Position numbers and translations under genes: made by a program. A DNA stretch of 64,000 bases, from contig CALVTS010000006.1 in assembly GCA_944363035.1 (NCBI GenBank), positions 14,382 through 78,381 on the forward strand. Direction: 5' to 3'. Below, in pieces: positions 2,754 through 54,703 of the stretch (the stretch's first letter is position 1; the number at the start of each line of letters is the position of its first letter). The notes below the pieces were generated by a model that made no database searches, was not told where the DNA came from, and saw nothing but the letters and a program-made list of their open reading frames with translations. This DNA is from an uncultured Clostridia bacterium. Lineage in GTDB: Bacteria; Bacillota; Clostridia; Christensenellales; CAG-917.

Positions 2754-3713
2754 ATGCTCCAGGTTTACAAGAAGATCAACAAAGCCACCATCTCGGTCGA
2801 TCCCGCCGTCGTGGACGAAAAGTACGATTTCCGCGACCATTGGGTCCATATGTCCAACCCGACGGACAAGGAGATCGAGCTCATTTCGCGTTCCACGGGC
2901 ATCGCGGAAGACATGATAAAAGCCGCTCTGGACGAGGAAGAGCGCGCGCGTGTCGAAAAGGACGACGACACCGGCGCCCTCCTGGTGGTGACGGACATCC
3001 CCTTCACCGAAGAGGACGACAACCACTACACCTACACCACTCTGCCCTTCGGCTTCATCTCCACTTCCGAAGTGATGGTCACCGTCTGTCTGGAAGAGAC
3101 CAGCCTCATAGACGATATGCTCTCGGCGCGTTTCGTCAAGGATTTCAACTTGCACAAACGCACCCGCTTCCTCATACAACTGCAATACACCATATCCAAA
3201 AAATTCCTGCACTACCTCAAACAGATAGACCGCGCCAGCCAACGCGTCCAGAACGTGCTGGAAAAGTCCATGAAAAACGGGGAACTCATCGAGATGCTGG
3301 ACCTGGAAAAATCCCTTGTCTATATCTCCACTTCCCTGCGCTCCAACAGCGTGGTGCTCGACAAGCTCCCCAAGATGATGAAGTTCTTCGAAGAGGACGA
3401 GGACCTGTGGGAGGACGTGGTCATCGAAAACAAGCAGGCCATCGAGATGTCAAACATATACCGGGACATACTCTCGGGCACCATGGACGCCTACGCCTCC
3501 ATCATCTCCAACAACCTCAACGTGGTCATGAAGGTGCTCACCTCCCTCACCCTGCTCGTCGCGATACCGAGCATGATAGGCGCGTTCTGGGGCATGAACA
3601 CAGGGGTGCCCTTCGAGGACGAGAGCTGGGGATTCTGGGTGGTCATCGGCATATCCGTGGTGGTGTGCCTGGTCGCGGGGATAGTGCTCTGGAAAAAGCG
3701 CTTCCTGAAATAA
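2754..3713 (+). CDS. corA: CorA-family magnesium/cobalt transporter
   Basis: GMN signature (AFWGMNTGVPF) followed by two C-terminal TM helices. Start moved to ATG 2754, which follows GGAGGA at 2742-2747. Confidence 0.9.
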   Translation: MLQVYKKINKATISVDPAVVDEKYDFRDHWVHMSNPTDKEIELISRSTGIAEDMIKAALDEEERARVEKDDDTGALLVVTDIPFTEEDDNHYTYTTLPFGFISTSEVMVTVCLEETSLIDDMLSARFVKDFNLHKRTRFLIQLQYTISKKFLHYLKQIDRASQRVQNVLEKSMKNGELIEMLDLEKSLVYISTSLRSNSVVLDKLPKMMKFFEEDEDLWEDVVIENKQAIEMSNIYRDILSGTMDAYASIISNNLNVVMKVLTSLTLLVAIPSMIGAFWGMNTGVPFEDESWGFWVVIGISVVVCLVAGIVLWKKRFLK

Positions 3714-38400: not shown

Positions 38401-38466
38401 CGTATATATGCGAATAACTCGCCCAAAGAGTACGGAGTGCTCGGGGAAATAAACAAGCTACCGTCC

Positions 38467-38803
38467 TCTGACATGGTAGTAAGATACCCCCTCCTCCCCT
38501 TCGGGACTCCTCCCCCACTCGGGATAGAGGACTGTCCTCCTAAAATGCGGGATATACTTTTTCATAAAGGCGCAAACCGCGCCTTTATGAAAACACCTCT
38601 TGAAAAAGGTTTGAGTCTCGCACTCACATAATCAAGCGGATACCAGTATCAACTGAACGTCGCTCGCGGGGCGAGGAGGGCGACTCGACGCGCACCGAGC
38701 CCGTGTCTACTTAATTTTTCGCCTAGCTTGCGAGATCGCAGATTCGCGCCGCGACTTGCAAAAGCGGGCGCAAACGCCCGCTGTGCAAGTTTGGCTGAGC
38801 GGC
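38467..38803 (+). ncRNA. candidate structured noncoding RNA / multicopy noncoding element, copy 1
   Basis: Shares long near-identical blocks with 52370-52888, in the same orientation. Several conserved hairpins. No coding potential. The strand call is tentative, based on G-U wobble preservation. Confidence 0.4.
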
Positions 38804-39043
38804 GCGTAATTCCGTCTCCGAAAATGGGCACATCGTACTCGGGGACGCTCCGAATAAGTGTTCATCACAATGATGCCCCACCCTCCCGCCCTATGGCGGC
38901 ACCTGCGCGAGTGTACCCTCGCGCAGATGCCGCATCTTTACTAACTTACTCTTCCCTTACACTCGTTTTGTCAAGGAACCCCGCCGAAAAATTTAGCTGG
39001 CAACGCCCGCTAAATTTTTCGCGCCCTTGACAACGACGACAAG

Positions 39044-39084
39044 TTAAAATAAAAACACGCGCGGAGCGGTCTCCCGCCCCGCGC
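39044..39084 (-). terminator. orphan strong minus-strand terminator inside gene-free region
   Basis: Stem GCGCGGAGCGG/CCGCCCCGCGC with one mismatch. On the minus strand it is followed by GTGTTTTTATTTTAAC. No annotated minus-strand gene lies upstream of it. Confidence 0.45.
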
Positions 39085-39494
39085 CTTGATTGCAAACTAC
39101 ACACCCTGTTTATTGCTGCCACCTTATCTTTTGATGTGTGCTTGTTTCCTTCTCACTTTTCCGTTTGTTGACGGTTCCCTTTTGCCCCCTTGGACAAGGG
39201 GGCGAATGTTGCGCTCGTTCTAAATATTCCCTTGTGGGGGTATGAGGAGTTTTCGGGTTGCAAGGGGCGGACTCGGAAAACAGCCCCTTGCCGCTTTTGT
39301 TTCTTTTGGCGTCCAAAAGAAAACATATTTTCCTTATCCGCTTGCAAACAAACTCTGTCTTTGTTTCTTTCAAAGTGTAAGAAAGAAACCCTCCTCCCTT
39401 TGCGCACAAAAGGAAGTCCTGCACGGTATGCGAAAGCACCCCTCTCCTCGGTCAGAGTTTCAAGCAAATTTTTTTAACAAATTCGCGATGATAC

Positions 39495-39555
39495 TTGACT
39501 TATCCGTGCGACGGGCATATTATGTGAACGACGGTTCATATGAATGTGCGTTCAT
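39495..39555 (+). promoter_or_regulatory. arsR-family operon promoter with two tandem palindromic operators
   Basis: TTGACT (39495-39500), 17 nt, TATTAT (39518-39523). Palindromes TGAAC-GACG-GTTCA (39525-39538) and ATGAA-TGTGCG-TTCAT (39540-39555). Confidence 0.6.
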
Positions 39556-50868: not shown

Positions 50869-52230
50869 TCAGAACTTGCTCCCGCCGCGCGTATCGAACA
50901 CGAACTCGAACCAACCGTCCTCCTTGGTCCCGCCGGCATTAAAAATTTGATCCATCACGCCATACACGGTCACTCTGATGACGTAACTGCCGTTCGCGTC
51001 GGGCGCTATCACCACTTCCTCACCGTATGCCTCTACGGGCTCTCCGTCATTGCCCACAAGGCGGGCGGAGGAGGGATCGTAGGCAGGGTCGTTTTGGTTG
51101 TACATCTCATCCGCCCCGAATTCCTCGAAGTAATAGTCCTCGGGTCCGTACAAGGAGATGTGCAAGAGGCTTCTGCCCTCATCACCCTCGAAATAGTACT
51201 CCCCTCTGCACCAGTTGTCGTTCGCCGACATATCGGCGCCAGACCCGCCTATGTACATGATCCAATGTTTCTCTGAGACAAACGTCAGCGTGCCGGTGAT
51301 GATTCCTCTGCACGCGGAAGAATCTGCGGAATAGCTCACCAGCTCCACATCGGGATCGTCGGGATCTTCGCCCTCCTCCCTCACGGGCAAACCGTTTATC
51401 GTCTCCTCCGGGACTGCCCCGTCCTGATCGGAATAAACGCGGTAATACTCGCCGTATCCGTCCTCCGCTTTTTGGTAAATTACGCCATTGTAGTGAACAT
51501 AGTCCGCCCAGTCTGCGTCATACGCAAGAGCTTTCACCTCCTCGGGGATGACGACATCCGTCGCGTTGACTTTGCTGTACACAAACTCATAAGAATATGA
51601 AAAATAACCGTCTGTATCACTTTCCTTGTAAGTCCATCCGAAAGCCAGCCTGTCCCCTTCGAGGCGAGCATACGGATCAACGTAAGTCCCCTCGTCTCCA
51701 TCTAATATCTCGGTATTAAATACGATTTTCCCGCCTTTTTCCGTCAAATAATAAGACAATCCTTCAATGTAATAGTCAACAATGGGCGCGGAGTTTATCA
51801 GAAGGTTCTTCTCTTTCTTCGTCACCACCATCTCGTCGAGGGTCACATCATCAGTATCGTTTGAACGAGTTATATCATAAACTTCACCTTTTTCCGCAAA
51901 CTCAGCGTGATCCGCCCTATATATCTCGTTCCCCGCTCTTTCCGTGATGGTCTCATACACGGCATCTCTGCTCACCGTAGAGATATAATCGGATCCTTCG
52001 GAATACGTCTCTTCGCCGTATACCGCCGAATAGTTCATATTTCGCTCCAACGTAAAACTCTCCGCATTCTCGAGCGCGGCAATGACATCGTCTAAGGACG
52101 CACTCTCGGTGAAGATCTTTTTCCCGGCTCCGCCTCCGTCCTTACCGCCCTCGTTGCAAGCGGCAAGCCCTATCGCGGCGCACGCCACAAGAGCCAAAAC
52201 CAGCAACAACGCAACCGCCCTTTTTCTCAT
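50869..52230 (-). CDS. hypothetical lipoprotein
   Basis: MRKRAVALLLVLALVACAAIGLAAC lipobox signal. RBS AAGGAGGAG. D/E/Y-rich mature protein. Confidence 0.75.
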   Translation of the reverse strand: MRKRAVALLLVLALVACAAIGLAACNEGGKDGGGAGKKIFTESASLDDVIAALENAESFTLERNMNYSAVYGEETYSEGSDYISTVSRDAVYETITERAGNEIYRADHAEFAEKGEVYDITRSNDTDDVTLDEMVVTKKEKNLLINSAPIVDYYIEGLSYYLTEKGGKIVFNTEILDGDEGTYVDPYARLEGDRLAFGWTYKESDTDGYFSYSYEFVYSKVNATDVVIPEEVKALAYDADWADYVHYNGVIYQKAEDGYGEYYRVYSDQDGAVPEETINGLPVREEGEDPDDPDVELVSYSADSSACRGIITGTLTFVSEKHWIMYIGGSGADMSANDNWCRGEYYFEGDEGRSLLHISLYGPEDYYFEEFGADEMYNQNDPAYDPSSARLVGNDGEPVEAYGEEVVIAPDANGSYVIRVTVYGVMDQIFNAGGTKEDGWFEFVFDTRGGSKF

Positions 52231-52339: not shown

Positions 52340-52367
52340 TTGCTTTCCTTCGGGCAAAAGGTATCAT
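52340..52367 (+). promoter_or_regulatory. candidate promoter for noncoding element copy 2
   Basis: TTGCTT (52340-52345), 16-nt spacer, TATCAT (52362-52367). Predicted +1 near 52374, where conservation with copy 1 begins. Confidence 0.4.
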
Positions 52368-52369
52368 CT

Positions 52370-52888
52370 TCTGACATGGAAGTATTGTACCCCCTCCTCA
52401 CTATACCCCACAAAATCACCTTTGGTGATGTTTGCGGGGACCCCGACTTCGGGACTCCTCCCCCACTACGTCGCAGCTCGTGCTCGCCTGCGCGGCGGCG
52501 TAAACTTCGCCGCTTATCTATCGCACGGCTACTCCTTTCCCCCTTCCGAATATCCATTCGGCGGGGACCCCTTGATTGGACTGTCCTCCTAAAATGCGGT
52601 ACTTACTTTTTCATAAAGGCGCAAACCGCGCCTTTATGAAAACACCTCTTGAAAAAAGTTTGAGTTTCGCACTTGCATGATCAAGCGGCGACCAGCACTT
52701 ACCGAACGTCGCTCGCGGGGCGAGGAGGGCGACTCGACGCGCACCGAGCCCGTGTCTACTTAATTATCCGTCTAGCTTGCGAGATCGCATTTTTACCCCA
52801 CCGAAAATACTTTCGGCGGGGACCCCGGACGCGCCGCGACTTGCAAGAGCGGGCTCAAACGCCCGCTGTGCAAGTTTGGCTGAGCGGC
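52370..52888 (+). ncRNA. candidate structured noncoding RNA / multicopy noncoding element, copy 2 (with insertions)
   Basis: Same conserved blocks as copy 1, interrupted by four insertions. A TTGCTT-16-TATCAT promoter ends 2 nt before the first conserved base, putting the predicted +1 a few nt inside the conserved block. Confidence 0.42.
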
Positions 52889-52916
52889 CCCCTCACATCG
52901 ACACCTCTCTCTCTGA

Positions 52917-52987
52917 TTTGGACACTTGGGGACGTGTTTATTTTGTCCATTTTTTGGACATTTTAAACACGTCCCCAAATGTCCAAA
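52917..52987. repeat. 71-bp palindrome, copy 1
   Basis: TTTGGACACTTGGGGACGTGTTTA-(TTTTGTCCATTTTTTGGACATT)-TAAACACGTCCCCAAATGTCCAAA. 24-bp arms with 1 mismatch. The inner loop is itself palindromic. Confidence 0.85.
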
Positions 52988-53153
52988 ATTACAATATAAA
53001 TCGCTATCTTTCGCTTCATGTCTTTTTCTTTCTTTACTCTTCCCTCACGCTTGCGATTATCTTCAAAACTCTACTGTTTACTGACATTTCCTCCCCTGCT
53101 CTTCTCCTCCCTGAACCAAACATTCGCCCTATTATAGACATTTCTCTCTCCAA

Positions 53154-53224
53154 TTTGGACACTTGGGGACGTGTTTATTTTGTCCATTTTTTGGACATTT
53201 TAAACACGTCCCCAAGTGTCCAAA
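53154..53224. repeat. 71-bp palindrome, copy 2 (direct repeat of 52917-52987)
   Basis: Same sequence, with perfect 24-bp arms. The roughly 20 nt upstream are also similar (GACAyyTCTCTCTC). Confidence 0.85.
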
Positions 53225-53317: not shown

Positions 53318-54703
53318 TCAGTACACGAACTGTTCCGCAAAGTAATCTTTGAGGTTCTCGACGGGGATGCGCACCTGCGCCATGGTGTCGCGCTCGCGCA
53401 CCGTGACCGCACCGTCCTCCAAGGTGTCGAAGTCCACGGTCACGCAATAGGGGGTGCCTATCTCGTCCTGACGGCGGTAACGTTTTCCGATAGAGCCCGT
53501 GGCGTCGAAATCGCAAGCAAAGTGCTTGGTGAGCTCGGCATAGATCTCCTGCGCCTTTTCGGCGAGCTGTTTCTGGAGAGGGAGCACCGCGACCTTGACG
53601 GGAGCGACGGCATGATGGAAGCGGAGCACCACCCTGGTGTCTCCTTCGCCGACCTCTTCCTCGTCGTAGGCGTTGCAGAGGAGCGCCAGCACCATGCGTT
53701 CCACACCGAGGGAGGGCTCGATGACATAAGGCACATACTTTTCATTGGTCACGGGGTCGGTGTAGGAGAGGTCCTTACCGCTGGTGTTGATGTGCTGAGT
53801 GAGGTCGTAATCCGTGCGATCCGCGACCCCCCAAAGTTCTCCCCAACCGAACGGGAAGAGGAACTCGAAATCCGTCGTGGCTTTGGAATAGAAGCAGAGC
53901 TCTTCCGCGCTGTGATCGCGCAAACGGAGCTTTTTGTCATCGAAACCGAGCCCTAAAAGCCATTCATGGCAGAATTGACGCCAATAGGCGAACCATTCGA
54001 GGTCGGTGCCCGGCTTGCAGAAGAATTCCAATTCCATCTGTTCGAACTCGCGCACACGGAAGATGAAGTTGCCTGGAGTGATCTCGTTGCGGAAGGATTT
54101 GCCTATCTGTCCTATGCCGAAGGGCACGCGCTTTCTCGTGGTGCGCTGGACGTTCTTGAAATTGACGAATATCCCCTGCGCCGTCTCCGGGCGAAGGTAT
54201 ATGGTGTTCGCGCTGTCCTCGGTGACGCCCTGGAAGGTCTTGAACATGAGGTTGAATTTGCGGATGGAAGTGAAATCTGACTTGCCGCACACGGGACACA
54301 CTATCCCGTTCTGTTTGATGTAATCTTCCATCTCGGCGTCCGACCAGCCCGCGACTGAGCCGTCGATGCCCTTCTTTTTCATGTAGTCCTCGATGAGGTT
54401 GTCCGCGCGGTGGCGGGTCTTGCAGGACTTGCAGTCCATGAGGGGGTCCGAAAAACCGCCTATATGCCCCGAAGCCTGCCACACCGAGGGGTTCATCAGG
54501 ATGGCGCAGTCCACGCCCACGTTGTACGGGCTTTCGGTGACGAACTTCTTCCACCACGCCGCTTTGACGTTGTTTTTGAGCGCCACGCCGAGAGGACCGT
54601 AATCCCAGGTGTTGGCGAGCCCGCCGTATATCTCGCTGCCGGGGAATATGAACCCGCGGTTCTTGCAGAGCGCGACCAATTTGTCCATTGTGAGTTTTGC
54701 CAT
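53318..54703 (-). CDS. glyQS: glycine--tRNA ligase (homodimeric class II)
   Basis: N-terminal [26 protein letters not shown]. 461 aa. Confidence 0.95.

Follow-up and report, generated by a model that had tools for sequence, protein, structure and literature searches.

A lineage-specific interspersed intergenic repeat with a conserved multi-helix fold in uncultured gut Clostridia

The window analysed here, a 64,000-nucleotide stretch of a contig from an uncultured Clostridia bacterium, carries two look-alike elements, both on the + strand. The first-pass annotation had placed them in the only gene-free gaps longer than 1 kb, which is consistent with gene calls within ~10 kb of each copy; no tRNAs were found in the window. 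The 13.9 kb between the copies holds uvrA, uvrB, arsR, a P-type ATPase gene and other housekeeping genes and is syntenic in strains without copy 2; on both counts the pair is rejected as the ends of a composite transposon or island. A hypervariable lipoprotein gene has its −35 box directly downstream of copy 2. All six blocks by which the pair was first recognized are present, and the shared blocks are 92–100% identical: a repeat search delimits one of 212 nt (92% identity; 38529–38740 and 52578–52789) and one of 59 nt (97% identity; 38745–38803 and 52830–52888). The mismatches show no adenine-specific pattern and no target gene is present, which excludes a DGR template/variable repeat pair. 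The refined limits of copy 1 comprise a leader hairpin (38455–38481), a core (38487–38806) and two trailer units reaching ~38870. Copy 2 extends from 52343 to 52888, as set by comparison of filled and empty sites in other strains; it stops at GCGGC, 3 nt before completion of the outer stem, and is devoid of trailer units. The features of the two copies are as follows.

38455–38481, + strand: 5′ leader hairpin of copy 1, stem GCTACCGT / ATGGTAGT with loop CCTCTGAC in the MFE fold
38487–38516, + strand: invariant C-rich 5′ box of copy 1, made of tract 1 CCCCCTCCTCCCC, the turn TTCGGG and tract 2 ACTCCTCCCCC
38745–38806, + strand: 3′ terminal domain of copy 1, in three tiers, the most conserved part across all subfamilies
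38807–38870, + strand: two trailer units of copy 1, ~32 nt each and degenerate, CCGTCTCCGAAAATGG..CGTACTCGGGG and ACGCTCCGAATAAGTG..
38871–39110, + strand: module X, a separate repeat module with the TTACTCTTCCCTTACACTCG motif and a GTCAAGG..CCTTGAC hairpin
52343–52888, + strand: copy 2 (leader, core and 3′ domain), precisely present or absent among strains
52400–52446, + strand: nested insertion 1 of copy 2, a small hairpin module with GGGGACCCC at its end, interrupting C-tract 1
52468–52577, + strand: nested insertion 2 of copy 2, ~110 nt, with a GGGGACCCC hairpin module at its end
52790–52829, + strand: nested insertion 3 of copy 2, ACCCCACCGAAAATACTTTCGGCGGGGACCCC, repeat family D16
52830–52888, + strand: 3′ terminal domain of copy 2, 97% identical to 38745–38803

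The element is built in the order 5′ leader hairpin, invariant C-rich box, core of ~230 nt, 3′ domain and trailer units. Its ends are conserved and its interior is variable or deleted: the ~230-nt core can be exchanged or lost, the C-type subfamily has a different middle of ~190 nt, and a minimal version consists of leader, C-rich box and 3′ domain only. The leader hairpin is common to the type-I, type-3 and C-type subfamilies, being found also in the C-type consensus, and a homologous leader with varying stems lies upstream in alignments of 84 copies. A small ORF on the − strand over the leader loop (MSED..) was discarded, its start codon being lost or a stop following next in other copies. 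Almost every column of the C-rich box is invariant across 62 sequences. The trailer consists of 0–8 degenerate units of ~32 nt in a single orientation; in copy 1, nhmmer unit matches fall at 38816–38846 and 38848–38866. Of 172 unit matches across loci, 162 are no more than 500 nt away from a core; 143 of them are 3′ of it in the same orientation, with 1–8 units per copy. The units are head-to-tail and degenerate, with variable patches of 4–7 nt and no spacers, which sets aside a CRISPR- or TIGR-type guide array.

Indels tens of nucleotides long had been reported between the two copies; the length differences stand, and they are to be read as the three nested insertions in copy 2, each of which carries a small hairpin module with GGGGACCCC at its end. 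The long indels of copy 2 are nested small hairpin repeats. Neither copy 1 nor the ortholog of copy 2 at locus L010 has insertion 1, and two other family members (L026 and L098) carry an insert similar to insertion 2. The further motif TTACTCTTCCC noticed downstream of both copies is real and belongs to another repeat module that recurs at other loci; module X follows another element copy in L093 and is found in reversed orientation in L086.

Open reading frames across the element are short or not common to both copies, in agreement with its initial description as non-coding, and their products match no Pfam family at E ≤ 1. The Rfam covariance-model scan proposed at the same stage returned no family at gathering score anywhere in the window. 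The Rfam 15 families tested include riboswitches, RNase P, tmRNA, 6S, SRP, T-box, group I and II introns and ribozymes, as well as HEARO, ROOL, GOLLD, OLE, raiA and others. Permissive scans gave nothing at E < 0.1 within the core of copy 1, copy 2 or C-type, and a single match in type 0, to the ylbH leader (E = 0.087, 19 of 50 bits). When 15 family loci were compared with Rfam, the sole match was an FMN riboswitch in L085. Searches with blastn of plasmid and phage collections detected no similar DNA, viral contigs contain no match to the family pattern, and exact 20–24-mers from the window copies are unmatched in viral contigs, GTDB genomes and a metagenome contig collection.

The family is detected only by a degenerate, gapped pattern of the 3′ hairpin made from divergent copies. 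This pattern has 84 matches in GTDB genomes, 83 of them in a few related uncultured Clostridia MAGs, Ca. Limadaptatus (1–3 matches) among them; the counts per MAG are 34, 26, 17, 3, 1, 1 and 1. The odd match out is a Rhodopseudomonas locus that cannot be aligned to the core. Contigs from human-gut metagenomes add 35 pattern matches, bringing the homologous copies in the two collections to more than 100. The ~297-nt core is alignable over its whole length at 70–93% across the family. Dozens of copies occupy unrelated intergenic sites, many of them at contig ends. The picture of a two-copy RNA gene, as first drawn from the window, is refuted by these numbers: dozens of copies per genome make the element an interspersed mosaic repeat. 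Private substitutions amount to only ~1 per copy, a low load that points to recent spread or homogenization. Substitutions common to several copies strongly avoid conserved columns; among true singletons the depletion in conserved columns is not significant (p = 0.10), so that purifying selection on individual copies is unsupported.

The impression of a conserved, hairpin-dense element is confirmed by a fold far more stable than that of shuffled sequences (z = −7.6 on the + strand and −5.8 on the − strand). Covariation, which the first-pass annotation had named as a check on its stems, was assessed in an alignment of 62 sequences against two controls, shuffles and slid partners, and the homologues carry compensatory base-pair changes well above both. 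In the proposed helices 92.5% of cells are paired, compared with 33–53% for slid partners; double changes occupy 149 cells, compared with 55 in shuffles, and no shuffle among 500 attains the covariation score of the real alignment. Fifteen pairs show double changes, which correspond to few independent events, roughly 8–10. A naive all-pairs covariation scan is too noisy because G–U pairing is permissive, and RNAalifold returns no more than 42 pairs, owing to misalignment of variable segments from different subfamilies. The sequence is under constraint to preserve a defined fold, which includes helices between segments ~160–215 nt apart. Its elements map on copy 1 as follows.

38507–38516, + strand: H1 5′ arm, CUCCUC and CCC, pairing with 38668–38678
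38668–38678, + strand: H1 3′ arm, the invariant purine motif GGGnnGAGGAG
38518–38521, + strand: P6 5′ arm, CUCG, in long-range pairing with 38731–38734
38731–38734, + strand: P6 3′ arm, CGAG
38546–38553, + strand: H2 5′ arm, UGCGGGAU, pairing with 38615–38622
38615–38622, + strand: H2 3′ arm, GUCUCGCA
38559–38593, + strand: optional perfect 15-bp hairpin in the core (equivalent in copy 2 at ~52608–52642)
38665–38705, + strand: alternative hairpin P4, CGCGGG (38665–38670) with CCCGUG (38700–38705)

Helix H1 is paired in 99.8% of cells, and its pair 27/202 changes from U–A to C–G in 12 sequences. P6 is predicted to cross H1 in a pseudoknot-type topology; at three of its four pairs both bases change from one subfamily to another (U–A/C–G 31:25, G–C/U–A 34:25 and C–G/G–C 30:28) with almost no broken cells. 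The inner 5 bp of H2 are invariant, including a conserved G–U (pairs 67–71/142–146, in 60–62 of 62 sequences), and this helix, showing no covariation, is weakly supported. Hairpin P4 competes with the CCC:GGG portion of H1; it is paired in 93% of cells and its changes are one-sided only (A–U/G–U 37:25). The 3′ terminal domain has an outer stem of 8 bp (CGCGCCGC/GCGGCGCG) and a 7-nt bulge (UGGCUGA), both invariant, together with a middle stem of 8 bp that shows three compensatory pairs (10–13 sequences each) and a variable inner stem-loop for which at least five different helices substitute. Two hairpins singled out from the window alone fare less well across the family. The 14-bp CATAAAGGCGC stem, listed above as the 15-bp hairpin, is indeed present in both copies but is an optional insertion carried by 9 of 62 members and is no part of the 297-nt consensus; the TGAGT/ACTCA stem is paired in only 67% of cells family-wide, no better than in shuffles. 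The + sense that had been read from the latter for a putative RNA is only moderately favoured, on other grounds (198 G–U compared with 101 A–C cells).

Copies are present, absent or swapped for another subfamily between strains of one species. L001 and L010 have copy 2, and it is precisely missing from L005 and L008, the flanks being 98.7–99.6% identical; where both strains have it, the copies differ by ~9% and bear a different 3′ hairpin type. At the copy 1 site, other strains with flanks 97–99% identical have type I, C-type, or type I together with an inverted type 0. The empty site of copy 2 reads TTAGTTTG^CTTCCCATATCGAC and the filled one TTAGTTTG[CTTTCC...GCGGC]CCCCTCACATCGAC. No convincing target-site duplication is seen at this one clean junction, and there are no terminal inverted repeats, the 5′ end CTTTCCTTCGGGCAAAAGG being unrelated to the reverse complement of the 3′ end GCCGCTCAGCCAAACTTG. 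Since the filled/empty comparison comes from a single clean junction, a deletion instead of an insertion may account for it; further junctions were sought in L086 and L093, where the sites are rearranged or have extra modules. Unit arrays change in length through indels flanked by 29-nt direct repeats.

The neighbouring genes are unrelated from locus to locus (ABC transporter, arsR, GlyRS, lipoprotein, IspDF, peptidase S58, thiamin pyrophosphokinase and others). Upstream genes are evenly split in orientation relative to the element (29 same, 29 opposite), and downstream genes are opposite in 41 cases and in the same orientation in 25. The element has neither the consistent co-oriented upstream position nor the coherent gene set of a cis-regulatory leader or riboswitch. 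When 426 ORFs from 76 loci, each an 8-kb stretch around a match, were clustered all against all, no recurrent real protein family emerged. No sigma-70-type promoter was found upstream of either copy in a scan for that type, and no intrinsic terminator at the 3′ domain. GC skew of the flanks on the element strand is negative for 54 copies and positive for 33 (p = 0.04, the loci being partly non-independent), a bias too weak to indicate a strictly lagging-strand ssDNA mechanism.

The element is new and unclassified, of mobile or repeat type and possibly made into RNA. The explanation we place first, at somewhat less than even confidence, is that the two copies belong to a lineage-specific, non-autonomous mobile mosaic repeat selected for its folding as a single strand. 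Such a selfish element would be copied or exchanged between intergenic sites; its moving form would be a folded single strand, either ssDNA or a + strand transcript, which an enzyme encoded elsewhere would recognize by its conserved ends. The copies would be kept similar, and their parts reshuffled, by gene conversion among them, and effects on neighbouring genes would be by-products. Several observations count against this mobile repeat. No transposase, integrase, reverse transcriptase or nuclease recurs beside any copy, the loci include no long version whose ends enclose an ORF, and in a MAG of another species (L080) the copy 1 site has an 83%-identical match. The lack of terminal inverted repeats and of a clear target-site duplication, the single clean junction and the weak GC-skew bias count against it too. 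The fold is also unusually complex for a DNA transposon end, with long-range and crossing helices, invariant unpaired motifs and conserved G–U pairs, and looks more like that of a functional RNA. A more specific proposal, that the core is a novel large (~300 nt), pseudoknotted, self-propagating nucleic acid (RNA or folded ssDNA) with no linked protein gene, served by a trans-encoded enzyme, of a type so far unlinked to mobile elements, that would recognize the C-rich box and the 3′ domain, and carrying its interchangeable middle as cargo, is rather unlikely.

Alternatively, the element may be the multiplied gene of a large structured non-coding RNA that belongs to a new class and is expressed from the + strand. 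This reading is a serious one, if still unlikely. The RNA would be a pseudoknotted scaffold binding a protein or SD-like sequences, the latter by pairing with its three CCUCC-type tracts, and the trailer hairpins and 3′ domain would protect its 3′ end. The covariation behind the long-range helices fits such a molecule, as do the numerous invariant unpaired positions, the UUCG-like turn within CCCUUCGGG, the stronger z score on the + strand and the two conserved G–U pairs (60 of 62 sequences), G–U cells being twice as frequent as A–C cells; the 101 A–C cells, however, would be G–U on the opposite strand. The polar architecture, in which trailer units lie 3′ and share the orientation, a T-run after one unit in low-copy lineages and the same-site match to copy 1 in another species point the same way. 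Against it, the ends have neither a sigma-70-type promoter nor an intrinsic terminator, and orientation to the upstream gene is random (29:29), so that read-through would yield the wrong strand half the time. Copies are moreover dispensable within a species, the middle is swappable or deletable, and conserved columns show no significant depletion of private substitutions (p = 0.10).

A passive, BIME- or NIME-like mosaic of DNA repeats, shaped by homologous recombination and gene conversion only, would dispense with a mobilizing enzyme altogether, its hairpins acting locally as stabilizers of mRNA ends or as transcription barriers. Other repeat modules do occur between the genes of these genomes, variously combined (GGGGACCCC hairpins, CCCCGTCCCC palindromes, module X and the D6 module), unit arrays vary by indels between 29-nt direct repeats, copies exchange subfamily parts, and variation is mostly shared and less often private. 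Recombination alone nevertheless leaves unexplained a 550-bp block at a site without flanking homology and the double changes that preserve helices 160–215 nt apart, and the 3′ domain is no terminator; we consider this account improbable.

Still less probable, to the point of being a marginal candidate, is a guide-RNA scaffold or transposon end that has no protein of its own, of the HEARO/omega-RNA (IscB/IsrB/TnpB), IS200/IS605 PATE or IS110 bridge RNA kind. Multiple copies, a complex ~300-nt fold, a precise boundary without terminal inverted repeats or an obvious target-site duplication, a sub-terminal 3′ hairpin and the weak orientation bias relative to GC skew would suit it. HEARO and IS-associated Rfam models, however, are unmatched even at E ≤ 10, none of more than 100 loci has an IscB-, TnpB- or TnpA-like or other recurrent ORF, and both flanks are conserved (GCGTnnnnCCGTC and the leader), with GCGTnnnnCCGTCTYCGAA on the 3′ side and the leader on the 5′ side in place of a copy-specific guide. 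Lastly, a decayed protein gene, an IS remnant or chance similarity, with which only short ORFs (≤64 aa) would agree, is effectively refuted by the empty Pfam search at E ≤ 1, the lack of similar DNA in the phage and plasmid collections, indels that are not multiples of three, conservation that tracks base-pairing and more than 100 homologous copies.

Comparison with known systems places the element, read as a mobile mosaic repeat, near several families of bacterial intergenic repeats. Neisseria intergenic mosaic elements (NIME) consist of RS blocks flanked by dRS3, and the basic unit of REP and dRS3 is a palindrome of 20–40 nt. With enterobacterial REP/BIME and with NIME the element shares high copy number, strictly intergenic location, modules in variable number and combination, the absence of coding capacity, and a role as a hot spot of strain variation and recombination; it has no sequence similarity to them. 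Mosaic repeats of these kinds and of BOX type are based on short units (20–60 nt), imperfect palindromes or hairpins bounded by terminal inverted repeats, and the element differs from all of them in a main module that is a ~297-nt core with nested and crossing long-range helices and invariant unpaired positions. Pneumococcal BOX (boxA-boxB(n)-boxC) and the Correia elements of Neisseria are likewise modular with variable tandem sub-units, non-autonomous, highly structured (as predicted) and insertion polymorphic, and may adjoin promoters. Terminal inverted repeats, TA duplications and folding into one long hairpin characterize both, whereas the present element has no terminal inverted repeats, a polar, asymmetric architecture and a multi-helix fold. 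A classical MITE is also multi-copy, non-coding and insertion polymorphic but has terminal inverted repeats. HEARO/omega-RNA, a mobile structured RNA often found without a protein gene, is associated with the IscB–IsrB–TnpB proteins of the IS200/IS605 superfamily and resembles the element in copy number, size (~300 nt) and pseudoknot-type long-range pairs; it is set apart by the absence here of a covariance-model match, of a nuclease or transposase ORF at the loci and of a variable guide segment. Finally, ‘Mobile/repeat sequence candidates' (MRSC) from the intergenic surveys of the Breaker laboratory often accompany transposase, integrase, nuclease or helicase genes (PMC11109978). Like these, the element has several copies per genome in inconsistent orientation to their neighbours (PMC11109978); unlike them, it shows no such gene association and is much larger than typical MRSC hairpins.

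If the mobile, mosaic reading is true, the element would be a new and unusually elaborate bacterial interspersed repeat. It is restricted to one clade of uncultured Clostridia from human and chicken guts. It breaks assemblies, as the many copies at contig ends attest, and diversifies intergenic regions between strains that are otherwise ~99% identical; it may also land near promoters, as with copy 2, just upstream of the promoter of the hypervariable lipoprotein gene. It would offer a case for studying how a non-autonomous element can move in the absence of inverted repeats and what purpose a conserved 300-nt fold serves. Should it prove to be an RNA, it would represent a new class of large non-coding RNA, with more than 100 natural variants ready for structure work.

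Copies 1 and 2, two look-alike non-coding elements of the window, contain on their + strand all the blocks quoted in the first-pass annotation. A repeat search resolves the shared sequence into a block of 212 nt with 92% identity (38529-38740 and 52578-52789) and a second of 59 nt with 97% identity (38745-38803 and 52830-52888). The + strand of copy 1 folds at -149.7 kcal/mol (z = -7.6 versus dinucleotide shuffles), compared with z = -5.8 for the - strand. Open reading frames spanning the element are short or differ between the two copies, and no Pfam family matches them at E <= 1; decayed coding sequence is excluded. The repeat is thus real, non-coding and hairpin-dense, as first described. 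Its presumed absence from known RNA families is borne out as well: Rfam 15 gives no match in the window at gathering score, and permissive scans of both cores give no family with E < 0.1. An ordinary FMN riboswitch at locus L085 (2846-2964, - strand), the sole gathering-score Rfam match in 132 kb of family loci, indicates that the search worked. No tRNA was found in the window, and plasmid and phage collections hold no DNA resembling the element.

A profile search of the window recovers copies 1 and 2 only, and exact 20-24-mers from the window have no match in viral contigs, GTDB genomes or a metagenome contig collection. Nevertheless, the element, described at first as present in two copies, belongs to a large family. 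A gapped pattern drawn from the most conserved part of divergent copies, GCCGC N6-7 CAARAG N6-26 CTGTG N5 TTGGSTGRGCGGC, yields 84 matches at 77 loci in GTDB species representatives, 35 matches at 33 loci in contigs from human-gut metagenomes and nothing in viral contigs. Of the 84 GTDB matches, 83 come from a few related MAGs of uncultured Clostridia: CASDRL01 (34), CALWAF01 (26), CAAEDU01 (17), Ca. Limadaptatus stercorigallinarum (3), Ca. L. stercoravium (1) and two further MAGs (1 each). The sole outlier is a Rhodopseudomonas locus at which core alignment fails. Alignment to copy 1 covers the whole core at ~70-93%, beyond the 3′ hairpin alone. These counts are lower bounds, because 18 more starts of the C-rich 5′ box (C-box) lack a regex-matching 3′ domain downstream. 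Many matches lie at contig ends, as is typical when repeats break an assembly.

The usual member measures ~297 nt from C-box to 3′ end. A perfect 15-bp hairpin (38559-38593), present in just 9 of 62 members, lengthens the window copies to 330 nt; the 14-bp stem initially taken for a conserved hairpin is accordingly optional.

Parts and helices of the element (+ strand, copy 1)
38455-38481: leader hairpin, the first part
38487-38516: invariant C-box, CCCCCUCCUYCCC-UUCGGG-(C)UUUCCUCCCCC
after the C-box: core, with several invariant unpaired motifs
38745-38806: 3′ domain, with invariant 8-bp outer stem, invariant 7-nt bulge, 8-bp middle stem and inner stem-loop
3′ of the 3′ domain: degenerate trailer units of ~32 nt, CCGTCTCCGAAAGAG..CGTGCTCAAGG
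38507-38516 : 38668-38678: H1, long-range helix
38518-38521 : 38731-38734: P6, long-range helix
38665-38670 : 38700-38705: P4, helix

The inner stem-loop varies in sequence and length by subfamily. Five subfamilies have this common plan; in a sixth, the C-type, ~190 nt in the middle are different while leader, C-box start and 3′ domain are the same, and a minimal version consists of leader, C-box and 3′ domain only. Such a pattern, in which the ends are kept while the interior varies or is lost, would be expected if the ends are what counts in cis. Trailer units are closely tied to the cores, 162 of 172 unit matches falling within 500 nt of one and 143 of these 162 lying on its 3′ side with matching orientation, at 1-8 per copy; visual inspection also shows unit-like sequence upstream of many leaders. 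An 85-nt indel in the array, bounded by 29-nt direct repeats CCGTCTCCGAAAATGGGCACATCGTACTC, separates L011 from the window (38807-38840), and such length change between strains suggests slipped or unequal recombination within arrays. A short repeat of 25-80 nt, ATGCCGGACAGGAATAATACGAACC..GCCTCAGAGCAATTCTTTTCGGCG, with five window copies (13698, 20458, 31051, 32366 and 42993), also occurs in L015, at the distal end of an array of trailer units.

The search for homologues and covariation proposed in the first-pass annotation proved worthwhile. Helices were taken from RNAalifold, per-sequence MFE folds and subfamily comparison, and pairs were counted in a 62-sequence alignment. In the proposed structure 92.5% of cells are paired, versus 33-53% when partners are slid by 1-3 columns; 149 cells are changed on both sides, versus 55 +/- 8 in shuffles, and the covariation score is 0.131 versus 0.061, a value reached by 0 of 500 shuffles. 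The sequences are not independent events, and independent compensatory events are estimated at roughly 8-10 in all. Support is best for four features: H1, in which 99.8% of cells pair and one pair switches from U-A to C-G in 12 sequences; P6, which crosses H1, has nearly no broken cells and switches both sides of 3 of its 4 pairs between subfamilies; the middle stem of the 3′ domain, three of whose pairs show compensatory changes, each in 10-13 sequences; and the inner stem of that domain, where at least five different helices substitute for one another. P4 is 93% paired and competes with part of H1. The G-U argument for a + sense RNA first built on the TGAGT/ACTCA stem fails, as this stem is 67% paired in the family alignment, not above shuffles. 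Across the supported helices, 198 G-U cells (pairing only on the + strand) stand against 101 A-C cells (only on the -), and two G-U pairs are kept in 60 of 62 sequences; together with the fold z-score, these features favour the + strand, though not decisively.

The window derives from a 97-kb ENA human-gut-type metagenome contig (BRZ_DE NODE_223), and both copies lie among ordinary chromosomal genes.

Genes around the two copies
ends 38348: ABC-FtsX fusion, flanking copy 1
starts 39604: arsR, HMA-domain gene and P-type ATPase, flanking copy 1
between the copies: uvrA and uvrB
50869-52230, - strand: lipoprotein gene (453 aa), flanking copy 2
53318-54703, - strand: GlyRS gene, flanking copy 2

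Because the flanking and intervening genes are of this kind, the 13.9 kb between the copies are ruled out as a mobile island. Syntenic contigs for the copy 2 site, fetched via the lipoprotein and its homologues, show copy 2 to be present in L001 (the source) and L010 and precisely absent from L005 and L008. The empty site reads CCTTAGTTTG^CTTCCCATATCGAC and the filled one CCTTAGTTTG[CTTTCCTTCGGG...GGCTGAGCGGC]CCCCTCACATCGAC, a comparison that sets the bounds of copy 2 at 52343-52888. The four strains are 98.7-99.6% identical across GlyRS, an AMP-binding gene, uvrB and 4.5 kb upstream, and the polymorphism is therefore within-species. Within copy 2 itself, L001 and L010 differ by ~9%, with unlike 3′ hairpin versions. 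The lipoprotein, with a signal peptide with Cys and no Pfam domain, is hypervariable within the species: its amino-acid identity is 69-92% among strains sharing 98.7-99.6% nucleotide identity in the flanking genes. It resembles a surface protein subject to diversifying selection or to frequent replacement of alleles.

Three small REP-like hairpin modules, ACCCCAC-[variable stem-loop]-GCGGGGACCCCGA, occur in the window, all nested in copy 2 (52400-52446, 52536-52577 and 52790-52829); MAG loci hold 75 per 769 kb, versus 12-27 for control 9-mers. The first is absent in L010, and such modules therefore insert or excise independently. The long indels between the copies represent nested small repeats rather than divergence. 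Beside copy 2, a palindromic repeat of 98 nt, GGACACTTGGGGACGTGTTTA...TAAACACGTCCCCAAATGTCC, is present in two places (52890-52987 and 53127-53224, 140 bp between); L008 has a single palindrome without the 140 bp. These repeats interrupt contigs from other samples and give spurious microRNA-precursor matches in Rfam, and related palindromes, CCCCGTCCCC, are common in MAG loci.

The copy 1 site was compared among strains with identical ArsR protein and flanks 97-99.4% identical, and its contents vary: the window version, a 95% version plus extra units, a 92-93% version with an inverted copy 74% identical and, in L013, an element whose body is different but whose leader and 3′ end are unchanged. 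In L080, a MAG of a different species, an 83%-identical match to copy 1 occupies the same site between flanking genes of 75-89% identity. The downstream TTACTCTTCCCTTACACTCG motif of the first-pass annotation does recur, as part of a module X (window ~38871-39110; L093 4517-4745; L086 ~3240-3370) that also contains a long GTCAAGG...CCTTGAC hairpin; module X lies 3′ of an element copy, in the same order, at a separate locus in another species, and has the opposite orientation at a third. Directly downstream of the 1.2-kb repeat mosaic, the promoter-like site of the arsR operon (TTGACT-17-TATTAT, within 39495-39550), followed by TGAAC...GTTCA-type inverted repeats as putative operator, is intact and kept in all strains.

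The structured-RNA reading is supported as regards a conserved fold with compensatory changes; transcription and any role as RNA are putative. A true large structured non-coding RNA class that has multiplied would fit the complex fold, its invariant unpaired motifs and conserved G-U pairs, the polar architecture and the same-site match in L080. Set against these, neither copy has a sigma-70-type promoter or an intrinsic terminator at its ends, upstream genes are co-oriented and opposite equally often (29 and 29) and downstream genes mostly opposite (41, versus 25 in the same orientation). Moreover, neighbouring genes are functionally unrelated, no protein family is found repeatedly next to the copies and no version with an ORF between its ends occurs among the loci examined. 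All this speaks against a stand-alone RNA gene, and we regard such a class as possible though doubtful. BIME/REP, NIME, BOX and Correia repeats are nearest in behaviour (copy number, location, modularity and strain variability). However, their defining short palindromic or TIR-bounded unit is missing here, and sequence or model similarity to them is nil; a BIME/NIME-like mosaic driven purely by recombination appears improbable. A derivative of omega-RNA, PATE or bridge-RNA lacking its protein is very unlikely, given no covariance-model match, partner ORF or guide segment, and nil sequence or model similarity to HEARO/omega-RNA.

With respect to flank GC skew, the copies show just a weak orientation bias (54:33, p = 0.04). 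Private substitutions amount to ~1 per copy, their depletion in conserved columns not being significant (p = 0.10), which points to recent spread or gene-conversion homogenisation rather than demonstrable per-copy purifying selection. We tentatively assign copies 1 and 2 to a new mosaic repeat, non-autonomous and lineage-restricted, whose conserved ends and fold would act in single-stranded form during copying or exchange, the folded strand perhaps being recognized by a trans-encoded enzyme, while gene conversion would reshuffle its parts. A more novel possibility, that the family represents a structured RNA or ssDNA of a new, self-propagating class, is conceivable, if rather unlikely.
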